From positions 1 through 34,344 of the forward strand of contig CAZJUB010000026.1 in NCBI GenBank assembly GCA_964549075.1: a stretch of 34,344 bases of DNA. The letters run 5' to 3'. The translations under genes were made by a program, and so were the position numbers. Below the pieces are notes generated by a model, which was given only the letters and a program-made list of their open reading frames with translations, was not told the DNA's origin and ran no database searches. Numbering within the stretch: the first letter of the stretch is position 1; each line of letters opens with the position of its first letter. The stretch is from an uncultured archaeon. GTDB taxonomy: Archaea > Asgardarchaeota > Heimdallarchaeia > Heimdallarchaeales > Heimdallarchaeaceae. Positions 749-15,420 of this stretch are shown here, piece by piece.

Positions 749-920
749 ACTATCTACTCTCTCATATGGAAAAGTCCTTTGTGAATTCTCCTCTCTAAGA
801 TATTTATAAGTATGCTTTTGTAAGTTTTCATATATTTAATTTATTCGAAGGGAAAATTTTTAAGCATGGGAGAATGTTTTTTACTACTTAATCCTAACGC
901 ATCATACAAACTAATTACTG

Positions 921-1289
921 GTGAAAAATATGAGCAAAGAAACTAAAGTTGAAGAAACAGAGAAGAAACCTACTCCCAAGATGAAAACCTCAGATAAGAA
1001 AACAGGTCCCGCGAGTCAAACGATCTACATTGGAAAAAAGAATACTATTAGTTATGTTTTAGTTGCAGTAACAATCTTGAATAAAAGTGATAAATGCGTT
1101 ATTCAAGCTCGAGGAAGACAAATTTCCAAGGCTGTAGATGTAGCAGAGATTACCAGAAGAAAATTCTTAGCAGATATGGTAGAAGTAACAGATGTTATTA
1201 TCGGTTCAGAAGATATACAATCTGATGAAGAAGGAATCCCACCAAAAACAGTCTCAACTATAGAGATAAATCTCGAAAAAGCACAATAG
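921..1289 (+). CDS. albA: Alba family chromatin/RNA-binding protein with a charged N-terminal extension (true start may be ATG 930)
   Basis: Alba motifs IYIGKK..SYV, ARGRQISKAVDVAEI and VSTIEI. Confidence 0.92.
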   Translation: MKNMSKETKVEETEKKPTPKMKTSDKKTGPASQTIYIGKKNTISYVLVAVTILNKSDKCVIQARGRQISKAVDVAEITRRKFLADMVEVTDVIIGSEDIQSDEEGIPPKTVSTIEINLEKAQ

Positions 1290-1307
1290 AAAGAATAATA
1301 AGGCAAC

Positions 1308-1348
1308 TATCTTTTCAGCTTTTTATTTATTTTTAAGAATGATTTTTC
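1308..1348 (+). terminator. Putative oligo-T terminator between convergent alba and top6A
   Basis: T-tracts (cttttcagctttttatttatttttaag) just after the alba stop, typical of archaeal intrinsic termination. Confidence 0.35.
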
Positions 1349-1351
1349 AGA

Positions 1352-2761
1352 TTAAATAAAGTCACCTGTTTCTATTTTTTTAGGCAAATAGAAATTTGTG
1401 ATATACTGTGGATCTCGTGCGTTTAAAGCTTGTATTTCTGCTTTAAAACCATTATCTAGTTGAATCTGCAATTGTTCTTTCCACTTAGGTTTTCGTTGAA
1501 CAAATTCCTCTTCTAACATTAATTTAGATCTATGAATATCTTTTGAGGTTAGTTTTAATAGAGCACTTCTTGGGATATCGAAACCACTTTCAGCTGATAA
1601 ATCACTTGGTAAAAGGCCTAACCATTTGATATTTGGAACAGCCAGGTGCGATGATTCAAAACTTAAAGCTTTGCTTCCTACACTATACACTCTCATAATT
1701 TCGAAACCATAAGGATCAGCATCCATAATCGCAAAAATTGGAATATTTAGGTCATCATTAATCTTTTTTAGAAATTGTCTTGTTGCTACATCTGGTTGCC
1801 CTTTTGCAGTAATCAGAATACTTGGTACATAATCATAAAATTGGTCTTCAGCTAATCTGTTAAATATAGCATCCTTCTCTATTACTAAGCACATTTCAGC
1901 GTCTGTTTCAAAATCCTCAATATCATCGATATTTGGAGAGATAGCTTTTCCTGCACCTATGGCACTACAATCTATTTGATCTCCTTTTTCTTTGAAACTC
2001 AATCTTCCCACAACTATTCCTTTAGATGAAGCACTTACATTTAAAGAAGATCGAGTTACTTGTAACATAGCACTTAAATCTTCCACTAATGAATCAGAAA
2101 CTGATTGTTTCTCAAATGAATTAACATCCATATAGAAAATATCTCTTTTAGTACTATGAATATCTCGAGAAAGCAAATCATGAATTAGTTTCATTATAAT
2201 GGTCATTTGTTCTACAGAACTTACTGAAGATAAACTTCTAAATTGACGTTCTATCATTTGTCTCCCTATTAAAACAAGTTCTTGTTCTTCATCGAATCCC
2301 ACATTTGTGCCACCTCTTGAAGGAATGTAGAATGAAGCTTCTGTTGGATTTTCCATCGCTTGTTGGAGAAAATTTAAAGCATACTCTACCAAAAGATTGT
2401 TTGTTTCTTGTGAATCCTTTGTTTCAACATGTGTTACTCCATAAGGCATGAAATATTCCTTATTATGAAGCAATTCAGCTTTTAGAGCTTCAATCTTATC
2501 TAATTGTATGGTGCGTTTGACACTGATTTTCATAGTTTGTTTTTCCAATGGATAACGGGAGAGTTTTCTACTTGGTTCTAACTTATACCATTTTTTACTA
2601 CTTCGCAAGAAGAGTACATATGTACCCCTCTTCAAATCAAAAGTGTCTTTTACCCAGTTATACATTTCACGAATAACTACTTCTTTATCAAAAGAAGTAT
2701 TGCGCTCTGTGGCAGGTAAAACAGTTGAATTAATGAAAGAGAAATTATATAGATTTGTCAT
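1352..2761 (-). CDS. top6A: DNA topoisomerase VI subunit A (Spo11/SPO11-3-like) with an ~85-aa N-terminal putative ubiquitin-like domain
   Basis: Winged-helix catalytic motif STKRDIFY (Tyr210, codon 2132-2134); TOPRIM motifs VIEKDA, TAKGQPD and DADPYG; C-terminal KAEIQAL. Start overlaps the top6B stop (ATGA, 2758-2761). Confidence 0.96.
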   Translation of the reverse strand: MTNLYNFSFINSTVLPATERNTSFDKEVVIREMYNWVKDTFDLKRGTYVLFLRSSKKWYKLEPSRKLSRYPLEKQTMKISVKRTIQLDKIEALKAELLHNKEYFMPYGVTHVETKDSQETNNLLVEYALNFLQQAMENPTEASFYIPSRGGTNVGFDEEQELVLIGRQMIERQFRSLSSVSSVEQMTIIMKLIHDLLSRDIHSTKRDIFYMDVNSFEKQSVSDSLVEDLSAMLQVTRSSLNVSASSKGIVVGRLSFKEKGDQIDCSAIGAGKAISPNIDDIEDFETDAEMCLVIEKDAIFNRLAEDQFYDYVPSILITAKGQPDVATRQFLKKINDDLNIPIFAIMDADPYGFEIMRVYSVGSKALSFESSHLAVPNIKWLGLLPSDLSAESGFDIPRSALLKLTSKDIHRSKLMLEEEFVQRKPKWKEQLQIQLDNGFKAEIQALNARDPQYITNFYLPKKIETGDFI

Positions 2762-5700
2762 TTTCCACTACTCCTTTTTTTATTTTTCGATGAACTTTTT
2801 GATGAAGATGATGACGTTTTCTTAGGATTAGATCCAACATCTAGTAAAGTTGTTTGTTTACTCTTCTTACTTGTAATCTTTGCAGCTGATTTCTTCTCTG
2901 AATCCTCAGTTGAAGATTTAGTTTTTGGTTTAGAAGAGGATTTTGCAGTTTTCTTAGCTACTGGTTGTTTTTTAGCAGCTGTAGTAGTTTTTTTAGTTGA
3001 AGAACTAACTTGCGTCGTGGAAGAAGCTTTTGTTGAAGACGAAGTTGTTTTCTTACTTGAGGTGGATTTAGAACTTGATAAGGGGAGTCGGTTCTTTAGA
3101 CCTTTGATAGCCATGTAACTTAAATCAACTTTACTATCTAAAACTGTAGAAGGATACAAAATAAATTCTTTAAAATCGTTTATACCTAATTGTTTTATTT
3201 GTACTAAAATTGGTGCTTTGACATCCAATTCTTCTATTTTATTATCCAAGTGCTTCAACAATTTTTCTACGTTAACTAAAGTCATTGCAGAAGAGCTCTT
3301 AGCTTCCTTTGTAGGAAATATCAGCTCTTGTATAGAAGATACGCCTATTTCTTTAAGTTTCTGAATCTCTTGCTCTTCGATGAAAGGCATTGAAGTTTTC
3401 AATTTAGTTTCATCCTTCTGAGCAAGTTTTATTGATTGATCTGTTAATGTTGAAAGGATAGATTTAAACTGCCTTTCAGGTATTTTGATTGTACTAGAAA
3501 GTTGGTTACAATCAGAGATGTATATATCGTTAATCGTTTGAATGTTTTTACTCTGTAATATACTTAAACTAGAAGGATTCTCTCTTGTTAAGTCTGAGAG
3601 ATAATAGATAGGCATATTCAAAACTTTTGTAATTCTAGATAAAGGTTGAGCTGTTAATCCAGAGGTTCTCAAAAGGATTTCATCTGGTACATTCAGATGA
3701 GTAATTGTTGAATATCCAGCACGTACTAACAGTTTTTTGATATTCTCATCTATGAAACTAACACTGGTGATAGGATAACAGCTCACCGTAATTATATCAT
3801 TTATTGTTATGTAATTTAGGTTCTTTGTCAATTCTTTCGCTGATGTTAACTGTTTATCAGTTAATTTACATTTAGAGAATATAGAATTGATATTAGCTGA
3901 TGTCATTAAATCAAAAACTTGATAGTAACCAGCTTTATTCAATTTTGCAACTAAAGCAGCATCTTGAGTGAGCAACATTATTGGAGCTCTTAAGGTTGAT
4001 AGAAGTTTCTCAAAATCAGGTTCAATATTCTGAAGATCAACATTATCCAGATAAGTAAATAATGATCCAAATGTTTTTAGCTCATGTTTCTTAAGTAATT
4101 CGCCTAAATCTGCTCCTTTAATAAAATTAGAAAATCTTTTCTGTTCTTGAGATACTAATTCAGAAAGTGTTGCAAATTTTATTGAAGGGACAATGTTTTT
4201 ACAAATTTTTTCAGATTGAGCTTTATGTTTACAATGAGCTAAAAGATCGTAAATTGTAATAAGATTATTTTTATTTACATAATTCAAAATCTCTGAATCT
4301 TCTGTAATTTCAGGTAAATCATATAGTTCTAGATACATTATATTCTTTAATCTAAGACACAACTCCCATTCTTTTGTGTTCTTATCGTTTGTTTTCTTAT
4401 TAAATAACAAAGCTTCTTCTACAGAATAAATGGAACTCTTCTTCAAGGTGTTAATCTCACCTGCAGTAAAAAGTTTGGTTGGAAAATCTATTAAGCCTTT
4501 TTTAAGCTGTTTGAGAAGACTAAGTGAGATATTTTTGAGGTTTCTCTCTAAAGTTTTATCAGTTACGACATTAGAGAGTGATTGTTTGGGTTCGAGTAAC
4601 ATTTCAGAAATTGTTTCAAATTCTTGAGATGCAATATTATCAATATTCGCTAGAGTTGGTTCTGATAGTATAATCGGAGACCTTGTTAGATAATCAAACA
4701 GATCCTTAATTTGCTTATCAATCTCTTCAGGTAAATTGCTGAGGATTGCTGTATATAGTTTATTGTCAAAATCATGCAATAATAATAGATATTCTAAAGA
4801 CAAATCGGGACAAGTAATGTTCTTATTAGAAATATCTATATCCAATACTGTACAAAGCTCTGTTCCTCTAGAGAACATAAATTCTGCAGTTCTGTTCAAC
4901 AAATCTTTTTGAGATTTAGTTAGTAAAAGATTATCTAGACTTGGCATTAAGAAGATAAGTTCCATTAGAGTTACAGATTCTTTTAATTTAGGTTCTAATT
5001 TTTTGACATCTAGTTTTTCTAAAATAGTGATTTTATCTTTCAAATTTTTTGGAATGTTATTCTTAGCTTTCATCACATCCAAAATTTGAATATAATTTCT
5101 AAAGCCTAAATCCTTTAAATCATCTATATCTTGAGTGGAGAGTACTTTATTAGCCTTCAAATTCGGAGCTTTCAATATATTTTCTGAAGTTAAATTAACT
5201 AGGTTTTTCAAAGCTTCGTCTACTGGTAAAGAAAGAGTATTTCCTAGGTCTTTGTTTGATAGTTTAAATAAATCTCCTACTTCTTCTAGGTTATTTTTAA
5301 TCTTTCTCCAGCTTTTTATAGAAATTTTAGGGTACTTAATAAGTAAAATTGAAGTGGAGAAGAATCTTTGAATAGCATTGATATTAGATTTAGAGGTTCT
5401 ATAATCTTCTGTCATAATATCATATATTATTTCATCCACAGTAGTGTAAACTTGGCTCAATTCCTTTTTGACATTAGGTGAAATTGTTTTTAGAGAAGAG
5501 ACTTTAATTCTCTTTGCAACATCACTTCTTATTCTTGAAGTTGTTAAACTAGGAAGTATTTCTTGAATCTTAGTTTTTAATTTTATTGGCGAGAAAGTTA
5601 ACCAGTAACTCTTAGGTTTGATAAGAAGATCAACATATGTATAAAGATCTTTAGAATTTAAACTTTGGATCTCATTAGTATTAAATTTTGTAGAAGCAGA

Positions 5701-8700
5701 GAGAGGATGTTTTAAGGTTTGAAGTATTTTTATACTGTTAGAACTAAGCTTCTTAAAACCAGCATACATTTCAAGCAAAAGCTCATTAAACAGTGTTATT
5801 TTCTTAAATTTGAGATCATTTTTAAGAGTTGTAAGTTCATTTTCACTTAACACTTGGTCAATTGGAACAAAATCTTCTTTTATTTTATCAGTAGAAGCTG
5901 AAAATGTTCTCAAGAATTCAGTAATTTTGTCAGCTTCTTTTTGAGTTGAAATTGTAATTAATTCTTGAACTGAAAAAATTGATTCTTTCAGATATTTGCT
6001 TTCTATTGTATGGAAAGGTAAGCTTAAGATTTCCTTATAATAAAGAATAGGAGTTTGCAAAATTGAACCAATTCTTTCTCTAATTTTATCAATTCTACTC
6101 TCTGAAACAATCCATGGATATACAGAGTATTCTCTCAAATCATTAAGATTAAAGATACCAATGGATTTCAGGAATTCCTTGTCTCTATCAGTCAAGAAAA
6201 ACGCGTCTCTTAGATGAGAATCTTGGTTAATTACAACTTTTGAATTTATGTTATCAATATTTATTGATAAGAGAATATCTGTTATTGCTTTAATACTAGT
6301 CCTAGCTTGAGTAGCAATGGTTTTTGGAGAGAGAATCAATAAATCAGCTATTGTAGCAATATTTGCTCTTTTTAATGCTACTTCTGTCTTGGTGTCTAAA
6401 TCAAGAAATCTTATATTAGCAAGAAGATAAGGTGCAACACGCTCATATAACTTCTTATCAGTTATAAAATTCTCAGAAGTAATTAAAGAGGTATAAGAAT
6501 GAAAACCTTTACCGACTATATATTTCTCTGTTGTTGAAAGAGGATCTTTGAACTTAAGTTCTTCAATATTTTTAATTTTTGAAACACTTTCAAGAATTGG
6601 TTGAAGATTCTCTTTTGAGATATTATGGAAATTAATGAGGATGTCAGCTATTGTATAATGAGGTTTGCTGTAGATATAAATCAGCAGTTCTTTTGAAAGT
6701 CCAGGGATTAAACTTGGACTAGAATTTAAGTTTATTAATAATTCTTCCAAATCATCTTCAGTGAGTTTTGTAAGAGAAGTTATATGATTGGAGGGGAGGT
6801 ACAAAAGATGATCTACTGTGCTTATACCAGCAGATAGTAATGAAGTGGTGACTGACTTGGTTAAGCTAAGTTTATCAATTGAAACACCAAATTTCTTGAT
6901 ATCAGATAGACGTTTTATAAGATAATTAGGATCAGTTTTTTGTCTTGAAATTAGACGTTTGATGCTGGCTGACCATTTTTGTTGAGGAACTTCAAGTAAA
7001 TCAGTATAAGTCATCACATTATTACTTAACAGTTCGTCTACATCTTTCTTGCTTAACTGGAGAACCTTACCAATAATTGTAATTGGTGTAAGTAACATCG
7101 AAACAAGTTGAGTAAGGCTTCTCTTATCTTCTTGAGGGATTGGCAGTTGATCCAGATTCAAGTTAGCAGCTTGAGTTAAAGATACACAACCATATTCTTT
7201 CAGTAAATTCTTAACTTTATCAGATATTTCTGTAAAGAGATCAATATCTAATCCAACTAATTTAGCACTTTTCTCTAAGTCGTTTAAGTCAATTTGTGCT
7301 ATAGTTAATTTAATATCATCTGTGGACTGCCCTGTAATGTTAGAAAGTAGAGGGAGAGGGATAGATAGATAATGGAAAACTGTTCGAACACCACTTTGTT
7401 TTAATTTTTGTATCTGGGTAGATGTTATACCTTCTAGGGTATTGATATTGAAATTCTTTAATGAGTAAAGAATAGGTCTAATTTCCTTAGAGATTTTAGT
7501 ATCAAAATTGATGATGCTATCAGCAGAGATGAGTTCATCGAGATAAGTAATATTGTTCGATTTGAGTTTCTTTAACAATTTATTATCTGATATCAACTTT
7601 ATTTCATCTAGCTTAATTGCCCATGTAGGAGGTTTGAGACTGACAATTTCTTCATTCAAAGCTTTAATAAATTTAGATATAATGTTATCTGGAAAAGCAA
7701 CTATTTCTGGTTTTAATTTTGATTCAGTGATTAGCAGATGAGCAGAAAGAATATTGATAGCTTTTCTATCTCGCAATCGATTGAAATTTTTAACATCTAA
7801 ACTCATGATATTATATAACCAAGAGACAGGTCGGAAGAAGTTGTTCGTTATATCATTGATTACTTTTTTCTCATTTTCTGAGAACTCAAATAAAGGATGT
7901 TGAACGAAATCAAAGAGGAACAATCCTGTTGTTAAACCATAACTACCAAATTTTTCACTCATTTTATTTGGTAGTTTAATTGATTGATTTAGATGCGGAC
8001 TAAATGTTTCAGACATCCTCTTTGTAAGGTTAAAATCACGTTGAAAATCACGAATATTTCTTGTTATCTCGGTAGTTACATTTTCCATCGATTGAACCTT
8101 TGAAGATATCAACTCTATTACATGATATACTCCATTTCTTCTGAGTGCTACCTTGGTATCCATGTCGAAATAAGGGAGAGAGAAAATACTCAGACTAAGA
8201 AAGCTAACTAGTTGTTCTACAAATGATATGTTCGAGATTTTTTCTATCCTTTCAAACTCTGAAAATTGTAGAAGATGTTCAGGTACAAAACCAAATAAAT
8301 CCTCCACAGTTTTCTTATCAGGATCAAAATACAGATCTCTTAACAAATCCTTAATAGGTTCATTCAAAAGTAAAGGTGTTCCTCTGTCAAGTGTAAATTG
8401 CCCTTTTCTAATCTCTGAAATTTCATTGGGTATTGAACCATCAAAAGTCTTCTTTAATTCGTTATCATTTACACACAAGAAATCAATTATTCTAAGAACG
8501 CCCATTTGTGATAATTTTAATTTTGTTTCAGTAGACAGTTCCGTTATGCGATAGATTGAAATATTACAACTTCCAAGGAAGTCTTTTACAACATCGTCAG
8601 AAACATTACTGATTGTAAAAGCTTGATAATAATGACTATAAATATCCTGAACATATTCTTTTTCAGATTTTAGAAGATAATTTACTGTCGATTTTTTAAG

Positions 8701-11700
8701 AACCGGGAACTCATCAATTTTTACACCTTTTCGATTTATTTCCTTTGCTAATGAAATTGGTTCTATTTTTTCTATATATTTTCTAACTTCCTTCTCGCTG
8801 ATATTAAGAATCAAAGCTATTGTTGATACATCTTCTGTAATAAATGAGAGTATATCGCCTACTCCAGAATAAATCAACTTCTGAACTTGTTGATTTGTTA
8901 ATCCAATGAAAGCAACAGAAGCAAGATACATTTGTACCTCTCTAAAAACATCCAATTTGACAAGATGAGGATGAGATTCCCTTATTTCAGTCATTCTAGA
9001 ATTGAAATCTTGAATTGAGTAAATCCCAAGTTTATTGATTTTTTCAAGATAATCCTCTTCAATTGAAGGTAATAATGTAATTGGGATAGCGGTTTCGATT
9101 CTTTTATCAGCTAGTTCGTCTAAAGAGAGTATATCAAGAGCATGAAATTCTTTGTAAATAGGATTTTGTGTAATGTGAAATAATTCTTTTTTATCTAATA
9201 AAGCTAGATCTATTACTGAATTTATCTCATAAAATTCTAATCGTTTTATTTCATCAAAGGACAGAAAACCAATAAATCTTATTGATCCAGAAAGAATTTC
9301 CATTATCTTCTGGTAGTTCTCAACTGGAAGAATATCAGATATTCGTCGTGTATCAGCTGAATAGTAGAGAGTTTCAATATCAGTTATTCCTCTCTCAGCA
9401 AGAGAATCAATTTGCTTTTGAGTTATTATAGAGCACTCTAGTATTTTGTGAGATTGTTCTTTCTGGAAAGACACAATAATTTGGTAATTTAGACTGTTCT
9501 GAATTTCTTTAATATACCGCATAGAGAGTCCTGTTATTTCTGATAATACATTTATTGGAACTGAGAAAAAGTCAATTAAAGTATTAACAGAGGATTTACT
9601 TAATTTCAAAGCTAATCCTCTCGGCAATCCTATAGAGGAGATTGGTACAGCTACATCTTTCACTAAACTATTGAACGAATCTACTTCCATCAGTTTATTG
9701 AAAAAAGGTGCAAGTCCAGGATGTTCTGTTAAATCTATATCAAATACATCACCAATCTTAGTATTTTTATAATCTTCGCGCTGAATCTTCTTAATCCGAT
9801 TAAAGAAAGGTGTGATTCTAAGAGGTAATTCTAGAAGAGATCTTATCAAGGTTAAATTATAGTTTTCAGCTTGATAGTGTTTATCCTTTGAAAGAAGATG
9901 AGAAATAACTTTTGGATCAGTTATAACATCTGATAATTTTTTATTCTCAAAATCCTGAACGATTTCTTTGAAAAATGAACTATTATAAACAGAAGATGGT
10001 AACTTTGAGAAATAATGGAAAGATCTCATTTCTAACATTTTGGATGAGTTAGAAGAAATAGATCTATATAAGAGGGGATCAGTAATTTCCTCATCGGGGA
10101 TAAATAGCAATTGAAAAACATTCTTTATGTTATTTTGCTCCCATACTTCTATAGAATATTCTGAGATTTCTGTGAAGATTCTTAAAGGAAGAGCTAGAAC
10201 TTTCTGGACAGCAGAAATCTTTGGCCATAGCTCAGGATTTAGCTGATAAAATGCTGGTTCACTTTCATAGAACAGTTCTTGGATAGTTTGGAATCTCTCA
10301 AACTGGAAGATTGAGTCCCTACTTAGTTGTCTTTGTTCTAATTTATCGAACAATTTTGTCTCAAAAGCGAATATGCCTTTTTCTTCATATAATCCAACAA
10401 TTTTCTGAGCGGTGAGAGAATCCTTTATTTCATCCAGCTGTTTTGATGATGTTCCAACTAACTTAGTCAGTTTTTGATTCGAGGTTAGAATGAAATCTGC
10501 AATAGTCAAAATCTTATTCTCTCTTAATATTTCAGTTTGTTCAAAAGTAAGTTCAGGTAAGAAATATCCAGGTAGAGAGAAATAACTGAGGATATCAGCT
10601 AAATCTAAACCTCGTTTAATATTCTCTATTCTTTCATCAGGAATTCCTGTTCTTTCCATTAAGCTTTCGGGTGAAGTAAGCATAAATCCCAATAAGGTTA
10701 AAACATTAACATCTGTAAGTGTTTGAATTAAATCAGCGTCTAACATATCTGAAATATGATTTAAAGGCAAATTCAAAACTTGTTTAAATGCTTCAACAGT
10801 TCTCCAAGGTAAAATAGCTTCATTCCATTTATTTTTAGTAGTAGAGAAATAGAGGTCTTCTAAAGTAAAAATGTTTATTTCTTCAAGGGCTTTTACAATT
10901 TCAGTTTTAAAGATATCAAGCTCAGATATATCTGTACCAGTATCACTAATTCGAATATTCTTTTGAAAATTCTTAGCTTCCTCAAAACTAACTCCCAAGA
11001 ATTCCGAGAGATTTTCAGCTTGACTCACAAGCAGATCTATAATTCTAGTGATACCATGATTTTGAAGCGTGTTTAATTGTTCAGTTGTAAGAGATACTAG
11101 TTGTTCTTCTTCTATTGTTTTTGTTTGTTCGTTACCTTCTTCTTCTTCTACCTTAACTGTCTTCTTTACTTTTCGCTCCCATGTTGCTAGAGTTAAAGGA
11201 GATCTGAGCAATTTTCTAAATTTGTCAACAACATTCCAATTCACTAGTGAAGCAGAAAAAATCATTGGTTGAGCAAGATAGAAAATCTTGTCAACAGTAT
11301 CATATCCAGCTAAAATCATAGATTCGATCTCATGAGTTGAAAATCTTTCAGAATCTTCAAAATCAAATGAAACTGATGATTTAAACCTACTTCTATCTAT
11401 CTTTTCGAAAAAGCTTGTTCCTTGCTGTTCTAGCTTAAAATCACTCTGAAGATCTTCAATTTCTTTTTCTTCTTTATCTAGAATTGATGCAAGCTCTTTA
11501 GGAGAGTATTCAAATAATTGATGAACAGCAACTATTCCTTTATTTCTTAAGCTTTCAAAATCTGATAAGGAGAGTTTCGAAACTCGAGATATAGGTAGAG
11601 CGAAAATACTTTGAAATTCATCAAACTCACATATGAGTAAAACCTGTTTACTAAATTCATCTTCTCCTTTGATATCTCTAGTTTTAAGCATCTCATGAAG

Positions 11701-14700
11701 TTCGAGAGTAGCATTCCTCTGAGCAGCTACACTTAGCTCTGATTCAATTATTTCTGGTATTAAATCTAAAAATTGCTTAATGGTTACAATATTTCTAGCT
11801 TTTAGCTTAAGAAGAGCTTCTTTTAAATCGGGAAGTTGTTTTTGCTTTTTATCAAATAGATGTGATAATTCAATAATCTCCATTTGAGAAAGTTGACTAA
11901 TATTTTCAATCTTTACCCAGTAACCTTTAGTAAAGTGAAGTTTCTCAGAAGGATATAGATAAAATAAGTCCTGAACTGTGGGGTTTGTAGTTCCAAAGTA
12001 TTCAATTAGTTTTGGAAACATCCCTTTTAGTTGACTTAGATTTTTACCATAGATTTCTTTATTTTTCTGGTAATCATCAAAAGAAACACTCGCTTTGAGT
12101 GTTTTGATTTTATTCTCGGATAAATCCATAATTTCGGATAATTCGTCATTTGGCCAAATAGCAAACCTGCCTATACAGTTTAAACCAACTTCTCGAAGCA
12201 AATGAGACATCTCTCGAAGATTAGGAAATGTGAAAATTATAGGAGAACGTAAAAATGTAATCATTTCAAGATATTTTTTCTTCTCTTCAGCTGTCATCGA
12301 ATATGCATCTGGTGAATTAAAGAACAGCTCTTCAAGGACAAGTATTCCTAGTTTTTTTAGTAATTCTTGCTCTTTTATCCAATCCGGAATTGGTGTTCCT
12401 AGAGCTTTTTTCATTCGCTCTACATCGCGTTTTTTCAAACCCATCTTTCTTAATGCAGGTGATGAATAAGCTAAAAAGGCTGATGAGGTGAAAATCTGGC
12501 TTTTATATAGTTCTCTTTCTAGACTTACAGGAATAATTTTCAAATGTGAAGTTGAATGCTCAAATTCTTTTTCAATCAATGAATGTTTAAGCTTTCTTTT
12601 AGATTCTTCCAGTAAAAGAGAAATTAATGATTTAAGTTTAGAAGAATGTATTTGATCAGCTGGAAAGCTTATGAATTTAGCAAGTGTCGTAATACCTTTT
12701 GCTGATAGAGTTGTGATCAACTCTTTTTCTTGAGTTTTCATTTCTTCAATTGGAAAAATCTTAAATTCTGATAATTTAATAGAAGGAGAATTTTTAACTA
12801 AAATATCGATAAAGTGAGAATAAAGTATCCTCTCCATTTCCTTGATGAGGATGAGATCATCAATTGATTGAGTAATAAATTCTTCAATTGTTTTTATCTT
12901 TCTTCTATGAAAAGCGTTTTTTGTATATCCATCTGTCCAATCCAACTTCATTTTAGTTATGTTTGTACTTTTAAAATTTGGAAACTTATCAGAGAGAATT
13001 GTAAGAACGTCTATTAAATGTTGAACTAATGTAAGAGTAATAGCTTGATTGTAAACTATTTCACTAGGATGAATTATTTGGAAAAGAAATTCCTCAATAG
13101 ACAAATCAGATGAAAGAAATCCTTCTGACTTTTCTTTTAACTCACTAAACGATGGGAACAAATGTTTTAATTTCAATTGTGTAATACTAGTTAAATTCTG
13201 AATTTCTTCTAAAGAAGCAGCTGATTTCTGCGAACCATCTGATTTTCTATTTTTTAATAAGAGTTGATTAATCAAATTATCCTTTTTACTTTCGAATAGT
13301 TTTTCTACAAAATTAGCAACAGAGCCTAATTTATTGTATTCTGTTGCTAGAAAATGATAGCTATTTTGAATCCATCTTCTGTTTAATGCATCTTTCAGAG
13401 ATAATGGAGATTTCTTCTCCTCTGTATCAAACCTTCTTTCTATAGCTCGAGTAACGAAGATTCTTGCATCTAAATCGGGACTTAATCCTTCTCTATCTAG
13501 TTCAAAAATGGTTCTTGATTTTATATTATATACTTCTTCACTCGGTAAATCTAGAATTGTAGTTAAATCGGAACTAGGAGTTAATAGAAAATCTGATACC
13601 GAAACAATATTCTTAGTTTTTAGAGCATTTTGGATGGGAGATGGACACCAAATATCTAAACCAAAAAGACGTTGTCCTAAAGGCATGAATAATTTTGCTT
13701 TAGTAGATTTTCCGTGAGCTAAAGCTGAAGCGATTCTATTTTTTTCAAAACGAAAATCAGTAAGAGGAAGATTCTCATCCTCTAAAATCTGAGTTAAATT
13801 ATCAACGATAACTGGAGCTGATTTAACAAAACGTGATAAACGAGCATGTTCTCTTCTCTTTCGTTTAGCTCTACTTAGGAAGGTTTTAAGTCTCCTTCCT
13901 AATTGCATTAAAGCTAATCGTATTTCTTCCTCAATTTCTGGAACATTAGAAATATATTCTTTACTAGTTTCAGGGAAAGGAATTTTTGTACTAACTAGAG
14001 ACACTGCAACAGCTAATGGATCAGATTGTCGAGTAAGACCATATTCATTCCATCTTATTGATGAGACAACTTGAGTAATGACATCGTTTCCTGCTCCAAA
14101 GATCAGGGGAATACGATTTGCATATCTGTAAATGATTTTATTGTCTTGAACAGTAGCACTTCGTGTTTGTGCAGCTTCACTTACTCCTCCTCCATATCCG
14201 ATTGCTGCTTCGATAATGAAAGGATGACCGGAATAAGCTTTTGCAGGTCGAGAGATTGCTTCAACGAATTTAGGATCAAGCTCTTTCTCAAGACCTTTTC
14301 TTAATCTGCCAGCTCCTAAAGGTGAAAGAGATGTACCCTTTGGTCCATCAAACTGAAAAACTCTGTCTCTTTTTCTTTTGACATCTTTAGCTTCTTGATA
14401 AGCTTTAACAAATCCCTCATGAACAATTCTACGTATCTCTTTGGATGTTAAATCTTTAGGATTTTTATTAGGGTCTATCTCTAGTAATTGAAAGAAATCC
14501 TCAGCTATTTCTTCAGTTACACCCATGAAATGTTCTGCTAAAAATCCTTTTAGTTTTTTATTTTTATTAGCAGCTAATTCTGCTTTGAATTGAGTAATAT
14601 CACAACCCCAAGGATGGATTTGGACATATTCAGGAGGTTCAGGCATATCATCTACAACACTTTCATAATGGAATTCATCGACTTCACCTTCTTTGTCTCC

Positions 14701-15387
14701 GGGTATATTGAGGTTGAAAGTAGCGTAAGGTGTGATTATAGCTAGTTGTCTGAAATATTCTCTAACACTATTTTTAGCTAGACTCCAAGCTCCAGTAAAA
14801 GTAATACTTATTTCTATTCCTGGCTCTTCAAGATAATTAGGATCACTTGGAAGATATTCGCGATGTTCCATAATTATAGGTTCATTCTTTTCCAAATTGA
14901 TCATTAGGTGCATTTCATTTGTGATATCATCCATAAAATAACGTGATTTGATTTTTGCAGGAAGGTCTACAGAAGACATAGAATATAATAAGCACATTTT
15001 AGCTCCTAAACCAAATCTTCCACGTGTCTGAATAACGCCATATTTTGTTCCTGTTAAAACTCTACCAAATAACTCTGCAATCTGATGTCCGGGGACTCCA
15101 ATACCATTATCTTTGCAGGTTAGCTGTAAGAAATCAAGATGTTTTTCGAGCTTTTTATACTGTTTAACATCAAGTAATTCATTAATTTCTCTACTTGATA
15201 GTCTTCTTAATTCCACATCAATAATTGGATTTACTCCTCTTTTTTCAGCTGAATCTAGACCATTTTCAACTAATTCTCTTATACTAGTAAATACAGCACG
15301 CATTGAATTTCCGAAACCAGCAATAGCTCTGTTATCGTTGAAAAATGCAGCTGCAGACATTTTTTTAGTAACTGAAGTATCAGACAC
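2758..15387 (-). CDS. top6B: Giant DNA topoisomerase VI subunit B (4209 aa): GHKL ATPase + H2TH + transducer (aa ~1-560), HhH/SAM-like repeat array (aa ~570-4100) and K/S/T-rich tail
   Basis: Bergerat-fold motifs RELVENGLDS, DNGIG and QTRGRFGLG; H2TH segment FLAEHFMGVTEEIAE; RYANRIPL; WNEYGL (WxxY); switch loop STKIPFPETSKEY; basic stalk GRRLKTFLSRAKRKRR. Single uninterrupted ORF with GTG start and a GAGGT SD motif upstream. Confidence 0.93.
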   Translation of the reverse strand: MSDTSVTKKMSAAAFFNDNRAIAGFGNSMRAVFTSIRELVENGLDSAEKRGVNPIIDVELRRLSSREINELLDVKQYKKLEKHLDFLQLTCKDNGIGVPGHQIAELFGRVLTGTKYGVIQTRGRFGLGAKMCLLYSMSSVDLPAKIKSRYFMDDITNEMHLMINLEKNEPIIMEHREYLPSDPNYLEEPGIEISITFTGAWSLAKNSVREYFRQLAIITPYATFNLNIPGDKEGEVDEFHYESVVDDMPEPPEYVQIHPWGCDITQFKAELAANKNKKLKGFLAEHFMGVTEEIAEDFFQLLEIDPNKNPKDLTSKEIRRIVHEGFVKAYQEAKDVKRKRDRVFQFDGPKGTSLSPLGAGRLRKGLEKELDPKFVEAISRPAKAYSGHPFIIEAAIGYGGGVSEAAQTRSATVQDNKIIYRYANRIPLIFGAGNDVITQVVSSIRWNEYGLTRQSDPLAVAVSLVSTKIPFPETSKEYISNVPEIEEEIRLALMQLGRRLKTFLSRAKRKRREHARLSRFVKSAPVIVDNLTQILEDENLPLTDFRFEKNRIASALAHGKSTKAKLFMPLGQRLFGLDIWCPSPIQNALKTKNIVSVSDFLLTPSSDLTTILDLPSEEVYNIKSRTIFELDREGLSPDLDARIFVTRAIERRFDTEEKKSPLSLKDALNRRWIQNSYHFLATEYNKLGSVANFVEKLFESKKDNLINQLLLKNRKSDGSQKSAASLEEIQNLTSITQLKLKHLFPSFSELKEKSEGFLSSDLSIEEFLFQIIHPSEIVYNQAITLTLVQHLIDVLTILSDKFPNFKSTNITKMKLDWTDGYTKNAFHRRKIKTIEEFITQSIDDLILIKEMERILYSHFIDILVKNSPSIKLSEFKIFPIEEMKTQEKELITTLSAKGITTLAKFISFPADQIHSSKLKSLISLLLEESKRKLKHSLIEKEFEHSTSHLKIIPVSLERELYKSQIFTSSAFLAYSSPALRKMGLKKRDVERMKKALGTPIPDWIKEQELLKKLGILVLEELFFNSPDAYSMTAEEKKKYLEMITFLRSPIIFTFPNLREMSHLLREVGLNCIGRFAIWPNDELSEIMDLSENKIKTLKASVSFDDYQKNKEIYGKNLSQLKGMFPKLIEYFGTTNPTVQDLFYLYPSEKLHFTKGYWVKIENISQLSQMEIIELSHLFDKKQKQLPDLKEALLKLKARNIVTIKQFLDLIPEIIESELSVAAQRNATLELHEMLKTRDIKGEDEFSKQVLLICEFDEFQSIFALPISRVSKLSLSDFESLRNKGIVAVHQLFEYSPKELASILDKEEKEIEDLQSDFKLEQQGTSFFEKIDRSRFKSSVSFDFEDSERFSTHEIESMILAGYDTVDKIFYLAQPMIFSASLVNWNVVDKFRKLLRSPLTLATWERKVKKTVKVEEEEGNEQTKTIEEEQLVSLTTEQLNTLQNHGITRIIDLLVSQAENLSEFLGVSFEEAKNFQKNIRISDTGTDISELDIFKTEIVKALEEINIFTLEDLYFSTTKNKWNEAILPWRTVEAFKQVLNLPLNHISDMLDADLIQTLTDVNVLTLLGFMLTSPESLMERTGIPDERIENIKRGLDLADILSYFSLPGYFLPELTFEQTEILRENKILTIADFILTSNQKLTKLVGTSSKQLDEIKDSLTAQKIVGLYEEKGIFAFETKLFDKLEQRQLSRDSIFQFERFQTIQELFYESEPAFYQLNPELWPKISAVQKVLALPLRIFTEISEYSIEVWEQNNIKNVFQLLFIPDEEITDPLLYRSISSNSSKMLEMRSFHYFSKLPSSVYNSSFFKEIVQDFENKKLSDVITDPKVISHLLSKDKHYQAENYNLTLIRSLLELPLRITPFFNRIKKIQREDYKNTKIGDVFDIDLTEHPGLAPFFNKLMEVDSFNSLVKDVAVPISSIGLPRGLALKLSKSSVNTLIDFFSVPINVLSEITGLSMRYIKEIQNSLNYQIIVSFQKEQSHKILECSIITQKQIDSLAERGITDIETLYYSADTRRISDILPVENYQKIMEILSGSIRFIGFLSFDEIKRLEFYEINSVIDLALLDKKELFHITQNPIYKEFHALDILSLDELADKRIETAIPITLLPSIEEDYLEKINKLGIYSIQDFNSRMTEIRESHPHLVKLDVFREVQMYLASVAFIGLTNQQVQKLIYSGVGDILSFITEDVSTIALILNISEKEVRKYIEKIEPISLAKEINRKGVKIDEFPVLKKSTVNYLLKSEKEYVQDIYSHYYQAFTISNVSDDVVKDFLGSCNISIYRITELSTETKLKLSQMGVLRIIDFLCVNDNELKKTFDGSIPNEISEIRKGQFTLDRGTPLLLNEPIKDLLRDLYFDPDKKTVEDLFGFVPEHLLQFSEFERIEKISNISFVEQLVSFLSLSIFSLPYFDMDTKVALRRNGVYHVIELISSKVQSMENVTTEITRNIRDFQRDFNLTKRMSETFSPHLNQSIKLPNKMSEKFGSYGLTTGLFLFDFVQHPLFEFSENEKKVINDITNNFFRPVSWLYNIMSLDVKNFNRLRDRKAINILSAHLLITESKLKPEIVAFPDNIISKFIKALNEEIVSLKPPTWAIKLDEIKLISDNKLLKKLKSNNITYLDELISADSIINFDTKISKEIRPILYSLKNFNINTLEGITSTQIQKLKQSGVRTVFHYLSIPLPLLSNITGQSTDDIKLTIAQIDLNDLEKSAKLVGLDIDLFTEISDKVKNLLKEYGCVSLTQAANLNLDQLPIPQEDKRSLTQLVSMLLTPITIIGKVLQLSKKDVDELLSNNVMTYTDLLEVPQQKWSASIKRLISRQKTDPNYLIKRLSDIKKFGVSIDKLSLTKSVTTSLLSAGISTVDHLLYLPSNHITSLTKLTEDDLEELLINLNSSPSLIPGLSKELLIYIYSKPHYTIADILINFHNISKENLQPILESVSKIKNIEELKFKDPLSTTEKYIVGKGFHSYTSLITSENFITDKKLYERVAPYLLANIRFLDLDTKTEVALKRANIATIADLLILSPKTIATQARTSIKAITDILLSINIDNINSKVVINQDSHLRDAFFLTDRDKEFLKSIGIFNLNDLREYSVYPWIVSESRIDKIRERIGSILQTPILYYKEILSLPFHTIESKYLKESIFSVQELITISTQKEADKITEFLRTFSASTDKIKEDFVPIDQVLSENELTTLKNDLKFKKITLFNELLLEMYAGFKKLSSNSIKILQTLKHPLSASTKFNTNEIQSLNSKDLYTYVDLLIKPKSYWLTFSPIKLKTKIQEILPSLTTSRIRSDVAKRIKVSSLKTISPNVKKELSQVYTTVDEIIYDIMTEDYRTSKSNINAIQRFFSTSILLIKYPKISIKSWRKIKNNLEEVGDLFKLSNKDLGNTLSLPVDEALKNLVNLTSENILKAPNLKANKVLSTQDIDDLKDLGFRNYIQILDVMKAKNNIPKNLKDKITILEKLDVKKLEPKLKESVTLMELIFLMPSLDNLLLTKSQKDLLNRTAEFMFSRGTELCTVLDIDISNKNITCPDLSLEYLLLLHDFDNKLYTAILSNLPEEIDKQIKDLFDYLTRSPIILSEPTLANIDNIASQEFETISEMLLEPKQSLSNVVTDKTLERNLKNISLSLLKQLKKGLIDFPTKLFTAGEINTLKKSSIYSVEEALLFNKKTNDKNTKEWELCLRLKNIMYLELYDLPEITEDSEILNYVNKNNLITIYDLLAHCKHKAQSEKICKNIVPSIKFATLSELVSQEQKRFSNFIKGADLGELLKKHELKTFGSLFTYLDNVDLQNIEPDFEKLLSTLRAPIMLLTQDAALVAKLNKAGYYQVFDLMTSANINSIFSKCKLTDKQLTSAKELTKNLNYITINDIITVSCYPITSVSFIDENIKKLLVRAGYSTITHLNVPDEILLRTSGLTAQPLSRITKVLNMPIYYLSDLTRENPSSLSILQSKNIQTINDIYISDCNQLSSTIKIPERQFKSILSTLTDQSIKLAQKDETKLKTSMPFIEEQEIQKLKEIGVSSIQELIFPTKEAKSSSAMTLVNVEKLLKHLDNKIEELDVKAPILVQIKQLGINDFKEFILYPSTVLDSKVDLSYMAIKGLKNRLPLSSSKSTSSKKTTSSSTKASSTTQVSSSTKKTTTAAKKQPVAKKTAKSSSKPKTKSSTEDSEKKSAAKITSKKSKQTTLLDVGSNPKKTSSSSSKSSSKNKKRSSGK
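2761..3078 (-). other. Low-complexity basic S/K/T/A-rich C-terminal tail of Top6B (aa ~4104-4209)
   Basis: SSSKSTSSKKTTSSSTKASSTT...KKTTTAAKKQPVAKKTAKSSSKPKTK...KNKKRSSGK. Confidence 0.85.
3079..13680 (-). repeat. Protein-level tandem array of about 45-55 degenerate ~60-65 aa helical repeats within top6B
   Basis: Recurrent core LxxxG/N-IxT/S-hxD/E-hh, e.g. LSAKGITTLAKFI, LQNHGITRIIDLL, LAERGITDIETLY, LLSAGISTVDHLL, LKRANIATIADLL, LKEIGVSSIQELI. Often followed by LxxxxGhSxxxxxxI. Count is by eye; repeats are not obvious at DNA level. Confidence 0.8.
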
Positions 15388-15420
15388 GTTTGTTACCTCT
15401 TAAATTGAACTCTTATTCTT

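Follow-up and report, generated by a model that had tools for sequence, protein, structure and literature searches.

The window analysed here, a 34,344-nt stretch of contig from an uncultured archaeon of the Heimdallarchaeaceae, raises the question of whether a topoisomerase VI B subunit (Top6B) of more than four thousand residues is a genuine protein and, if so, what the part beyond its core might do. Top6B is customarily regarded as a protein of 500-800 aa. The preliminary description of this DNA had reported a single 12.6-kb ORF of 4209 aa in which a Top6B core is fused to repeats, and one uninterrupted frame, opened by a GTG codon and free of stops within, was indeed found on the reverse strand (Table 1). 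Its size, singled out as exceptional, is about eight times the usual Top6B length. The start position is common to the orthologues, which share the N-terminal consensus MSxxxxTKKMSAAAFF. By tblastn, the host genome assembly (3.23 Mb, 89.7% complete, 31% G+C) contains one Top6B core and no paralogue of the region that follows it, here called the arm.

Table 1. Features of the giant top6B locus, with positions in the window and residue numbers of the encoded proteins.
Feature	Position (nt)	Strand	Details and basis
top6B (giant)	2758..15387	(-)	4209 codons + stop; GTG at 15385-15387, TGA at 2758-2760
Shine-Dalgarno-like AGAGGT	15395..15400	(-)	8 nt upstream of the top6B GTG (15385-15387); read from the sequence
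Top6B core, residues 1-545	13753..15387	(-)	GHKL ATPase, H2TH and transducer; NCBIfam, PF09239, 2zbk_B alignment
Linker, residues ~546-580	13648..13752	(-)	Last transducer helix to first unit; low AF2 pLDDT
Arm, residues ~581-4100	3088..13647	(-)	All-helical; 44 or more five-helix units resembling the RAD51/RadA NTD; Pfam, unit scans, AF2, VIA-align
Tail, residues 4101-4209 (109 aa)	2761..3087	(-)	Low-complexity, basic; composition
PIP-like peptide KSKQTTLLDV, residues 4175-4184	2836..2865	(-)	Invariant columns and predicted PCNA interface
top6A, 469 aa	1352..2761	(-)	TP6A_N and Toprim; ATG overlaps top6B stop

The first ~560 residues had been described as an intact Top6B core, and this description holds. 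Both NCBIfam equivalog models pass their cut-offs over residues 7-543 (PRK04184, 441.8 bits against 274; TIGR01052, 388.9 bits against 380.7), Pfam Topo-VIb_trans (PF09239) covers residues 349-515 with an E-value of 4.6e-54, and residues 9-494 of the S. shibatae protein (2zbk_B) align without a break to residues 9-543 (E 5e-84); Pfam HATPase_c, taken alone, is weak (19 bits, below its cut-off of 26.4). E38 and N42, whose numbering is identical to that of 2zbk_B, are invariant in 11 orthologues together with D93, G95, G97 and G123-G128, as is the switch lysine, K476, which aligns to S. shibatae K427. Following the S. shibatae literature, we take E38 and N42 to be the catalytic glutamate and the Mg-binding asparagine of the N-box, and the glycines to form the G1 and G2 boxes. 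Judged by its sequence, the core is complete, with its ATPase and transducer residues intact.

The stop codon of top6B and the start codon of top6A overlap in the tetranucleotide ATGA. Top6A carries Pfam TP6A_N (E 2.5e-22) and Toprim (E 1.1e-58), aligns from residue 112 onwards to residues 9-388 of 2zbk_A with Y210 opposite tyrosine 106, and contains the DADPYG motif. Its first 111 residues matched nothing in Pfam at E<=1 and a single unnamed cluster (0.75) in the ESM Atlas, which lends no support to a ubiquitin-like domain in Top6A. From this arrangement the two genes are co-transcribed and probably translationally coupled, so that an A2B2 topoisomerase VI is expected; the earlier assignment of the giant protein as the B subunit of such a type IIB enzyme is thus borne out by an adjoining, complete Top6A gene with its catalytic residues intact. 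An Alba gene lies near top6B on the opposite strand.

A fusion of this kind might be an artefact: top6B could have been wrongly joined in assembly to a repeat gene with which it has nothing to do, or the gene could be a pseudogene in decay. The contig is metagenome-derived, and contiguity across nt ~13600-13750, which had been named as a point to check, was followed in assembled contigs: one 53-kb contig, possibly the source of the present DNA, crosses the junction, and independent low-depth Logan contigs from three further runs cover this interval in pieces only, the gaps in their cover carrying no weight. The contigs show no joints or loose ends. None of the 16 runs listed for this DNA is an RNA run. 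Against an artefact stands the same fusion in other genomes. Uninterrupted top6B frames of 4,140-4,305 aa are present in 20 of the 31 genomes of the same family, among them two genomes that consist of one contig each, with frames of 4,185 and 4,305 aa, and further families have the fusion too. Database searches returned 24 matching proteins of 2,324-4,210 aa, 23 of them with a Top6B transducer. The 12.6-kb frame is free of stops in a genome of 31% G+C, and nonsynonymous divergence (pN 0.14) lies far below synonymous divergence (pS 0.74). A misassembly between core and repeats, considered at the outset, is excluded by the occurrence of the same fusion in other genomes; the artefact is effectively refuted, and we give it almost no credence.

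Conservation differs between the two parts of the protein, with orthologues 76-93% identical in the core and 37-77% identical in the arm. Compared with a same-genus orthologue, pN and pS are 0.138 and 0.736 for the arm and 0.048 and 0.659 for the core; saturation at synonymous sites (pS 0.62-0.76) makes dN/dS unreliable, and the two proportions are given instead. By this comparison, the arm is under purifying selection. A survey of Top6B lengths added to the long frames of this family a graded series in related lineages, with totals of ~1,100, ~2,300 and ~3,500 aa and an upper end of ~4,300 aa. Among the best 30 of 132 matches in a search of 1.84 billion representatives, 16 include the core, and 12 of the 14 others can be aligned over at least 450 aa with the arm of a protein that has the core, which makes a separate family of array proteins outside Top6B unlikely. 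PF26169 appears among the precomputed annotations of relatives.

The arm had been described as 45-55 copies of a unit of ~60-65 aa. Units were sought by a sliding profile-profile scan with a probability threshold of 20%, for which the Top6B core served as negative control; the chance level, gauged by this control alone, reached 2.6% at its highest. The scan detected 44 units at a probability of at least 20%, 38 at 50%, 33 at 75% and 28 at 90%, while a self-trained HMM gave 31 and an orthologue-trained HMM 26 (domain E<0.01). Spacing is mainly 50-70 aa with a period of 54-67 aa, and locally alternates between 54 and 67 aa to give a double unit of ~121 aa. Stretches in which the scan found no units lie around residues 625-820, 1800-1925, 2450-2600 and 2890-3000. 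Since spacing is mostly 50-70 aa and such unit-free stretches are present, 45-55 copies are plausible, and the span from residue 585 to residue 4101 has room for ~58 units of 60 aa; the number itself was not reached, with 44 detected and counts that vary by method. No tandem repeats longer than 25 nt were found at the DNA level in the gene, and paralogous units have a mean identity of 14% (28 units). At the level of sequence, the repeats are real yet strongly diverged. In an AF2 model of residues 530-1130, pLDDT falls below 50 at model residues 1-52, and the first detected unit begins at residue 585.

The units had been likened to the five-helix module of the RadA/Rad51 N-terminal domain (NTD) and the RNAP alpha-CTD, and both Pfam and structure matches agree with this. 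PF21794 (RAD51D_N) matches three stretches of the arm (E 2e-28; score 98.7 bits, cut-off 27.3), and PF03118 (RNA_pol_A_CTD) matches with an E-value of 1.4e-7 (31.6 bits against 23.8). In VIA-align searches, residues 137-205 of an AF2 arm model resembled the RAD51D NTD (9q25_D; Z 8.5, rmsd 2.4 Å, 61 residues aligned) and the RAD51C NTD (8gj9_B; Z 8.1, rmsd 2.1 Å, 64 of 64 aligned), and the same two domains were again the top matches of the first unit after the core (Z 7.6 and 7.0), scores to be read with the caveat that Z values under 8-13 are common among helical models. Further matches were NusA AR1/AR2 (Z 6.5-6.9), SAM domains (Z 5-6), the RadA/RAD51 NTD, the RNAP alpha-CTD, Pol X and Y-family polymerases. 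A Foldseek search of the PDB with a 701-residue arm model returned nothing at E<=0.001; the best match was a designed toroid (E 0.47), followed by RadA, RAD51 paralogues and topoisomerase V (Topo V) at E 0.5-2.6. Against PDB sequences, phmmer with the whole extension (3,649 aa) gave no matches at E<=1. A unit profile first retrieved designed repeat proteins (E 4.6e-12 to 4e-5), matches that are probably compositional, and then a DNA polymerase IV chain (7yll_A, 1.4e-4), the RNAP alpha-CTD (0.052), RadA (0.071) and Rad51 (0.086). Sequence profiles and models both support placing the units in the five-helix class to which the RadA/Rad51 NTD, the RNAP alpha-CTD and SAM-like domains belong, and we are nearly certain that the giant Top6B is real and carries an array of domains with this RAD51-NTD-like fold.

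One possible function is DNA binding. A domain of this type contacts DNA in several of the structure matches, namely the RAD51/RadA NTD, the RNAP alpha-CTD, Pol X and the Y-family polymerases, and Topo V binds DNA with 12 tandem (HhH)2 domains (PMC9489208). The arm could be a multivalent DNA-binding array like that of Topo V, one that by wrapping, bridging or clamping DNA alters the reaction itself, in that it presents crossings, biases strand passage or makes the enzyme more processive. Its exit from the core beside the A subunit and DNA gate, the strongly basic tail and the glycine of the first hairpin, retained in 54% of 271 unit instances from 11 orthologues, are consistent with this. The hairpin glycine signature through which such domains touch the DNA backbone (G-h-G type) is, however, degenerate in the arm, the glycine of the second hairpin being present in only 19% of 239 instances from the same number of orthologues, and the arm is near neutral in composition (K+R 12.8%, D+E 13.6%), with a net acidic charge in 9 of 18 windows of 200 aa between residues 601 and 4200, including the best conserved part (1546-2545). 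The same fold is protein-binding in NusA AR1/AR2 and in SAM domains, and the Topo V structures (8df7_A, 8df9_B and 5hm5) reach Foldseek E-values of 1.2-2.6 only, which are not significant, and do not appear among the best 50 matches of either VIA search. We therefore put the binding of DNA by at least some units at slightly short of an even chance and consider an array that changes the reaction unlikely. DNA wrapping by the arm in the manner of the gyrase CTD may be pictured purely by analogy.

Several of these properties would suit a different role, in which the arm is a protein-interaction scaffold or structural rod whose units bind distinct partners or each other and which places Topo VI in a chromosome-organising assembly. 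Each unit retains its own sequence, with detected units 52% identical to their orthologous counterparts and 14% identical to paralogous ones, and the number and spacing of units are fixed: aligned with an orthologue of 48% identity, the arm is colinear, with gaps at 16 of 3,555 positions. The most conserved stretch of the arm is acidic, the structure searches place the arm close to the protein-binding NusA acidic repeats, to SAM domains and to the NTDs of RAD51 paralogues, and the alternating 54/67-aa spacing suggests paired modules. Chromatin proteins and replisome or segregation factors are candidate partners. Less favourable to this role, the neighbouring genes give no consistent functional clue, the nearby Alba gene being on the opposite strand, and the AF2 arm models (pTM 0.33 and 0.36) define no inter-domain geometry. 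As a main function, a scaffold or rod seems rather improbable to us; it is compatible with a tether, and the two readings are not mutually exclusive.

The tail beyond the arm is rich in serine (31%), lysine (25%) and threonine (16%) and is disordered; the tails of orthologues are likewise rich in K/S/T/P, though their sequences vary. Within it, Q4178, T4180, L4181 and D4183 (QxTLxD) are invariant in 11 orthologues. When the tail (residues 4140-4209) was modelled with the PCNA of the same genome (261 aa), the complex prediction gave an ipSAE of 0.79 (runs 0.81, 0.79 and 0.79), against 0.06 for the best of three controls, with a contact agreement between runs of at least 57% and a partner pLDDT of at least 46. 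For calibration, solved complexes attained this ipSAE mark in 58 of 80 cases and mismatched pairs in 2 of 110, a scale that is only rough here since the alignments used were shallow (13 and 11 rows). The predicted interface joins tail residues 4175-4184 to PCNA residues 42, 45-49, 159, 205, 207, 232-233, 249 and 251-256. A canonical PCNA-interacting (PIP) box reads Q-x-x-[LIVM]-x-x-[FYW]-[FYW]; Q4178 and L4181 fit this consensus, which is broken by V4184 and G4185 in place of the aromatic pair, and the peptide is therefore named PIP-like. Since PIP-PCNA complexes are abundant among solved structures, the prediction may also pass through likeness alone. A Hodarchaeales protein of 2324 aa has a similar peptide at its C-terminus (QKTLDAML), as has a protein of 3140 aa (QKSLDEYS). 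In five of nine distant giants (P0018 and P0020-P0023; 3,468-3,609 aa), which have basic tails, the peptide is absent from the last 150 residues, and PCNA docking is thus not universal in the family. A literature search found no report of a contact between Topo VI and PCNA. Weighing model and conservation, we judge docking of the tail peptide on PCNA to be evenly balanced between likely and unlikely.

Extended Top6B frames tend to occur with gyrase. GyrA was found in 68 of 70 genomes of six families (f1-f6), all of which have extended frames, and in 16 genomes of f5 and one of f6 the gene immediately upstream of the giant top6B, in the same orientation, is gyrA. The link is imperfect: family f28 has Top6B frames of ~2,290 aa yet GyrA in none of five genomes, f7 has frames of ~1,110 aa together with a second, normal copy and GyrA in none of 12, and in families f19-f21, counted without Top6B lengths, GyrA occurs in 133 of 153 genomes. 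In view of f28 and of the counts in f19-f21, the idea that gyrase is a correlate either sufficient or necessary for the arm was rejected. The preliminary description had contained neither this link, nor the graded arm lengths, nor the basic tail with its conserved PCNA-docking-like peptide. Lineage-specific C-terminal extensions of Top6B in gyrase-encoding Asgard archaea had already been noted by Villain et al. 2022 (PMC9348778), who proposed a specialisation or sequestering of Topo VI.

We favour the view that the appendage is the tethering arm of a replication-linked decatenase in cells that also have gyrase, a reading to which we give an even chance. In solved Topo VI structures (2ZBK, 2Q2E) the last transducer helices hold Top6A beside the DNA gate. 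Just after these helices the chain of the giant protein continues through a linker of ~35 aa into an arm of ~3,500 aa and the 109-aa basic tail. In its usual form, Topo VI binds weakly and works distributively. The appendage would target and tether it and leave the chemistry of strand passage unchanged: the tail would adhere to DNA through its charge, the conserved QxTLxD peptide would dock on PCNA, and the long folded arm would act as a reach-and-hold tether, single units probably making weak contacts to DNA or chromatin proteins. Topo VI has been characterised as a decatenase (PMC8837201, PMC5922973), and such a tether would keep it at clamps remaining on newly replicated DNA, where it would remove precatenanes and catenanes; supercoiling would be left to the gyrase encoded in the host genome and in related long-arm families. 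Several observations fit this reading poorly. A simple tether needs no array of at least 44 individually conserved, colinear domains, the tail peptide is without the canonical aromatic pair, five relatives of ~3,500 aa are without the peptide altogether, and the gyrase link has the exceptions given above. A bolder version, in which acquisition of gyrase freed Topo VI to become both a replisome-anchored decatenase and a chromosome organiser, with a PCNA-docked tail and an arm of ~50 domains bridging sister DNA, strikes us as improbable.

If this bolder version is correct, a single Topo VI could patrol or bridge new sister DNA, or serve as a scaffold element; the extended arm is possibly longer than 100 nm, a rough estimate rather than a computed value. 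Since Top6B is present as a sole copy, is under purifying selection and has a graded length across the Heimdall group (1,100 to 4,300 aa), chromosome untangling here proceeds with a very different holoenzyme. Asgard archaea are the archaeal lineage closest to eukaryotes, in which scaffold and targeting roles are assigned to Topo II's C-terminal region and to BIN4 and RHL1, which are partners of Topo VI, and in the bolder version the appendage would be a prokaryotic counterpart of these. It provides a test case for how a distributive decatenase may be targeted, through PCNA, DNA or chromatin, and bears on the division of labour between Topo VI and gyrase. For phylogenomics, in which Top6A and Top6B serve as markers, gene callers and length filters may mishandle a giant top6B.

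The architecture had been put forward as undescribed, and a literature search found no paper on a giant Top6B with a helical array; C-terminal extensions as such are known (PMC9348778). Those extensions share with the present one their position after the transducer and their occurrence in gyrase lineages, with Heimdall-, Kari- and Hodarchaeota named, and in the text accessible to us the Asgard extension is a 'globular domain', given without size, repeat array or fold. The canonical Top6B proteins of S. shibatae (2zbk_B, 530 aa) and M. mazei (2q2e_B, 621 aa) resemble the giant in a collinear core with conserved ATPase and switch-lysine residues and in an operon with Top6A. They end after the core or, in M. 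mazei, add an Ig-like C-terminal domain of ~100 aa, whereas the giant, about eight times longer, goes on with 44 or more helical units and ends in a basic tail that bears a PIP-like peptide. In sequence (E 2e-28) as well as in modelled fold (Z 7.0-8.5, rmsd 2.1-2.5 Å over 58-64 residues), its units match the RAD51/RadA NTD family (PF21794; 8gj9, 9q25_D); in that family the domain is present once, N-terminal to a recombinase ATPase, and here dozens of copies stand in tandem, C-terminal to a GHKL subunit. Archaeal PCNA clients with a PIP box, such as Fen1, RFC-L and PolB, likewise place a Q-x-x-L peptide near the C-terminus in a basic flexible tail, and the giant Top6B peptide is predicted to occupy the PCNA pocket (residues 42-49, 232-233 and 249-256), but the clients have the aromatic pair that it is without. 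Topo V of Methanopyrus kandleri is laid out in a comparable way, its topoisomerase core leading into many small HhH-class domains in tandem. That core is of the unrelated type IC (~980 aa) and its array binds DNA and has AP-lyase sites, whereas the catalytic part of the present enzyme is a type IIB Top6B/Top6A pair with no type IC domain, and its units appear RAD51-NTD-like rather than Topo V-like.

Since chance stop codons are frequent at a G+C content of ~31%, as in the window, the 12.6-kb open frame of the giant top6B gene is unusual in itself. Its stop codon (TGA) shares bases with the start codon (ATG) of top6A, the gene that follows (ATGA). From its residue 112 onward, Top6A could be aligned with residues 9-388 of S. 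shibatae Top6A (2zbk_A); Y210 occupies the position of tyrosine 106 in that chain, which we take to be the catalytic tyrosine, and the Toprim motif, DADPYG, is retained. The ~110 extra N-terminal residues of Top6A (1-111) had no Pfam match at E≤1 and nothing informative in the ESM Atlas. Elsewhere in the window, the Tubulin/FtsZ-like protein comes directly after a 462-aa ORF that lacks Pfam matches.

Positions of the features in the window
Feature	Position	Strand	Details
giant top6B gene	2758-15387	(-)	one open frame, 4209 codons, GTG start
AGAGGT	8 nt upstream of top6B GTG start	(-)	read from sequence
top6A	1352-2761	(-)	469 aa; Pfam TP6A_N E 2.5e-22, Toprim E 1.1e-58
Alba chromatin protein gene	921-1289	(+)	PF01918 E 1.4e-15; just past top6A, opposite strand
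Tubulin/FtsZ GTPase-domain protein	within 21602-24130	(+)	379 aa; weak match, E 1.8e-10, 41.9 bits vs cut-off 33

The N-terminal core of the protein exceeded the cut-off of both NCBIfam Top6B equivalogs over residues 7-543 (441.8 bits vs 274; 388.9 vs 380.7), and Pfam Topo-VIb_trans was matched at residues 349-515 (E 4.6e-54). Residues 9-494 of S. shibatae Top6B (2zbk_B) aligned with residues 9-543 with no large gaps (E 5e-84), so that the giant ORF with an intact Top6B core claimed in the preliminary description was borne out. E38 and N42 share their numbering with the crystal structure and K476 aligns with K427; these residues, presumably the general base, a Mg ligand and the switch lysine, do not vary across 11 aligned full-length orthologues. 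By tblastn the core was found once in its own assembly (3.23 Mb, 217 contigs, 89.7% complete), and no paralogue of the arm, the repeat region at residues ~581-4100, was found elsewhere in it. Since the core is single and its features are intact, the giant Top6B is, judging from sequence, most likely the working Topo VI of the cell.

With residues 600-4100 as a database query, 24 proteins of 2,324-4,210 aa were retrieved, 23 of which carry the Top6B transducer family. Their contigs reach 631 kb, their sources are named Heimdallarchaeaceae, Kariarchaeaceae, Hodarchaeales and Promethearchaeota, and some are already recorded as 'DNA topoisomerase VI subunit B'. Six-frame searching of 400 genomes from the phylum for residues 1-2990 produced a match in 384. 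Among the matches listed (531 more exist besides, and a stricter first look was used), giant frames are common in the window's own family, f1, and lengths are graded in relatives. Full-length f1 frames include those of two single-contig genomes (4,185 and 4,305 aa); the remaining 11 of the 31 f1 genomes have shorter frames or pieces, several starting where the contig itself begins. In f7, Top6B is encoded twice per genome, once as a short-armed form of ~1,110-1,155 aa and once at the normal size of ~500 aa (e.g. G082:C84:118310-119884 and G082:C44:64704-66164), and these genomes may represent the arm at an early or a reduced stage.

Core-bearing frames (among the matches listed) and genomes with GyrA (PF00521 matches) by family
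Family	Relation to window's genome	Core-bearing frames	GyrA
f1	own family	4,140-4,305 aa, uninterrupted, in 20/31 genomes	30/30 + own genome (contig C156)
f2	same order	4,244 aa	1/1
f3	same order	up to 3,573 aa	3/3
f4	same order	3,473-3,587 aa	11/12
f5	same class	2,312-2,346 aa in 14 genomes, 2,802 in one, others 1,247-1,638	21/22
f6	same class	1,323-1,359 aa, possibly cut	2/2
f7	same class	1,108-1,155 aa + second frame 498-523 aa	0/12
f28	another class	2,286-2,297 aa	0/5
f19-f21			133/153
most other families	rest of phylum	~500-680 aa	

The core is 76-93% identical to that of orthologues, the arm 37-77% and the C-terminal tail (residues 4101-4209) 29-62%; within the arm, residues 1546-2545 are conserved best. 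Against a same-genus orthologue, pN and pS were 0.138 and 0.736 for the arm and 0.048 and 0.659 for the core; because synonymous sites are saturated, no ratio is given. The core/arm junction, for which a check of contiguity by reads had been proposed, is bridged by a 53-kb Logan contig from one run, which may itself be the source of the window's DNA, and is covered in Logan contigs of three other runs by identical fragments with no joints or loose ends. Conserved frames across genomes, a pN far below pS and the Logan contigs exclude misassembly or a pseudogene for practical purposes.

The observation of a giant Top6B is thus confirmed. A full-text literature search found no description of a multi-thousand-residue Top6B or its repeat array, in agreement with the novelty first claimed, and no paper combining Asgard, topoisomerase and HhH. 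Neither was found in the accessible portions of PMC11302465, PMC9665070, PMC11894792, PMC12680538, PMC12411855, PMC8813620, PMC12395588 and PMC11529989. By its legend, Extended Data Fig. 7b of Wu et al. 2022 (PMC8813620) lists Asgard proteins >3,000 aa with their CDD domains; 'topoisomerase' occurs 0 times in the text.

The number of ~60-aa units recovered from the arm depended on the method: 31 with a self-trained HMM, and 26 (domain E<0.01) with an HMM trained on the units of 11 orthologues. When the unit profile was compared, profile to profile, with 70-residue segments sliding along the orthologue alignment, 44 distinct positions reached a probability of at least 20% (38 at ≥50%, 33 at ≥75%, 28 at ≥90%), with a maximum of 2.6% in the core as negative control. 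Spacing is mostly 50-70 aa, and an alternation of 54 and 67 aa in several stretches amounts to a double module of ~121 aa. No unit was detected in four stretches of 120-240 aa; in a model of the junction (residues 530-1130) helices, some of them longer, are present also in sequence of this kind. The arm therefore has at least 44 detected units, and ~58 would fit. Their consensus is h-x-x-L-x-x-x-G-I-x-T-h-x-D-h-h ... L ... h-S/P-x-x-x-h-x-x-h-K, with Gly at the first turn in 54% of 271 instances and at the second in 19% of 239. Since the gene contains no DNA tandem repeat >25 nt and paralogous units share a mean identity of only 14% (maximum 36%), the repeats are, judging from sequence, ancient. 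Among 1.84 billion representative proteins, a 48-position profile built from 26 of the window's units found 132 matches at E≤0.001 (36 at E≤1e-10, 21 at E≤1e-30). Among the best 30 of these, 16 have a Top6B core (seven by database annotation, nine by phmmer), and 12 of the 14 core-less ones align over at least 450 aa with the arm of a core-bearing protein, and are most likely fragments of a giant top6B gene. No other enzyme bearing such an array was found among the same 30.

Sequence past residue ~545 had no phmmer match among PDB sequences. In Pfam, the arm matched RAD51D_N over three stretches (E 2e-28, 98.7 bits vs cut-off 27.3) and RNA_pol_A_CTD (E 1.4e-7). Alignments of 14-15 rows were used to fold two stretches of the protein, residues 1400-2100 (mean pLDDT 62.8, pTM 0.33, pLDDT ≥70 at 299/701 residues) and residues 530-1130 (66.8, 0.36 and 304/601). 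Both models are nearly all helix, and in the former four to five short helices repeat every ~60 residues. Foldseek gave no match in the PDB at E≤0.001. With VIA-align against 48,161 representative chains, model residues 137-205 ranked first with the RAD51D NTD (9q25_D; Z 8.5, rmsd 2.4 Å, 61 aligned) and second with the RAD51C NTD (8gj9_B; Z 8.1, rmsd 2.1 Å, 64/64 aligned), followed by the AF1548 C-terminal domain, NusA AR2 and AR1 and RNAP alpha-CTD (Z 6-7), and SAM domains (Z 5-6). The first post-core unit (residues ~573-638) gave the identical order, with Z 7.6 and 7.0. Z below ~8-13 is common for helical models, and the assignment therefore rests on sequence and modelled structure jointly; together these support a RAD51/RadA-NTD-class fold, and with it the resemblance to the RadA/Rad51 N-terminus and RNAP alpha-CTD initially noted.

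DNA is contacted by this fold class in RAD51/RadA NTD, alpha-CTD and several polymerases, and the arm originates next to the A subunit and the DNA gate, both of which favor the DNA-binding arm of the preliminary description. However, K+R make up 12.8% of the arm and D+E 13.6%; of 18 200-aa windows between residues 601 and 4200, nine are net negative, one neutral and eight positive. The best-conserved part of the arm is acidic, the hairpin glycines are degenerate, and the protein-binding NusA acidic repeats and SAM domains resemble the units just as closely in structure. DNA binding by the arm is unproven, and the proposed binding and wrapping mechanism is in part contradicted by composition. 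Against an orthologue of 48% identity the arm has 16 gap positions in 3,555 residues, and detected units are 52% identical to their orthologous counterparts. That the arm is strictly colinear and every unit individual disfavors a generic spacer; as sequence features, both favor position-specific constraints, e.g. partners or a defined superstructure.

According to Villain et al. 2022 (PMC9348778), gyrase occurs in Heimdall-, Kari- and Hodarchaeota, lineage-specific C-terminal extensions of Top6B occur only in gyrase-encoding archaea (for Asgard, a 'globular domain'), and a specialisation of Topo VI is proposed. In our survey the association of gyrase with the arm is real within the class; it is neither necessary nor sufficient. 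The same-strand neighbor directly upstream of giant top6B is gyrA in 16 f5 genomes and one f6 genome (e.g. G069:C68:2023-7729, G066:C1:4655234-4661141 and G079:C296:12612-18389, with top6B of ~2,300 aa); in f1 this linkage is absent, the two genes being on different contigs. The GyrA match of the window's own genome (G000 contig C156, 77-2729 (-)) is split, with model positions 1-41 and 39-352 ~1.3 kb apart, and several same-genus genomes have 2-3 GyrA pieces (E near 1e-87 to 1e-91); the split could reflect an intein in gyrA.

The tail is rich in Ser (31%), Lys (25%) and Thr (16%). Orthologous tails differ in sequence and have one peptide in common, [KR]-Q-x-T-L-x-D-h, whose Q4178, T4180, L4181 and D4183 do not vary among 11 sequences. 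Nine giant relatives at greater distance were compared: a similar peptide forms the C-terminus of two, a Hodarchaeales protein of 2,324 aa (QKTLDAML) and a protein of 3,140 aa (QKSLDEYS), and five (3,468-3,609 aa) have basic tails with no such peptide. In two relatives (P0016 and P0017) the basic tail consists of a K/T/S/P unit of ~10-13 aa repeated in tandem almost perfectly, and the tail therefore evolves by recent repeat expansion, unlike the arm.

When residues 4140-4209 were folded with the single PCNA (261 aa) of the same genome, from alignments of 13 and 11 rows, the ipSAE was 0.79 (runs 0.81, 0.79 and 0.79) and the best of three controls 0.06, although PIP-PCNA complexes are common among solved structures and a high value may show likeness alone; the ipSAE mark is reached by 58 of 80 solved complexes vs 2 of 110 mismatched pairs. 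Contact agreement among runs was at least 57% and partner pLDDT at least 46. The predicted interface comprises exactly tail residues 4175-4184 and PCNA residues 42, 45-49, 159, 205, 207, 232-233, 249 and 251-256, a surface which we take to be the usual pocket of PIP-PCNA structures.

Our best reading, to which we give an even chance, is that arm and tail form a targeting and tethering appendage for a specialised decatenase: in cells with gyrase, the basic, predicted PCNA-docking tail and the long, folded, multi-domain arm would hold the enzyme at replicated DNA. The size and conservation of the giant Top6B, and its occurrence in the lineage nearest to eukaryotes, make it of high interest. Whereas a canonical PIP box has an aromatic pair, the peptide by which the Top6B tail is predicted to dock has none.
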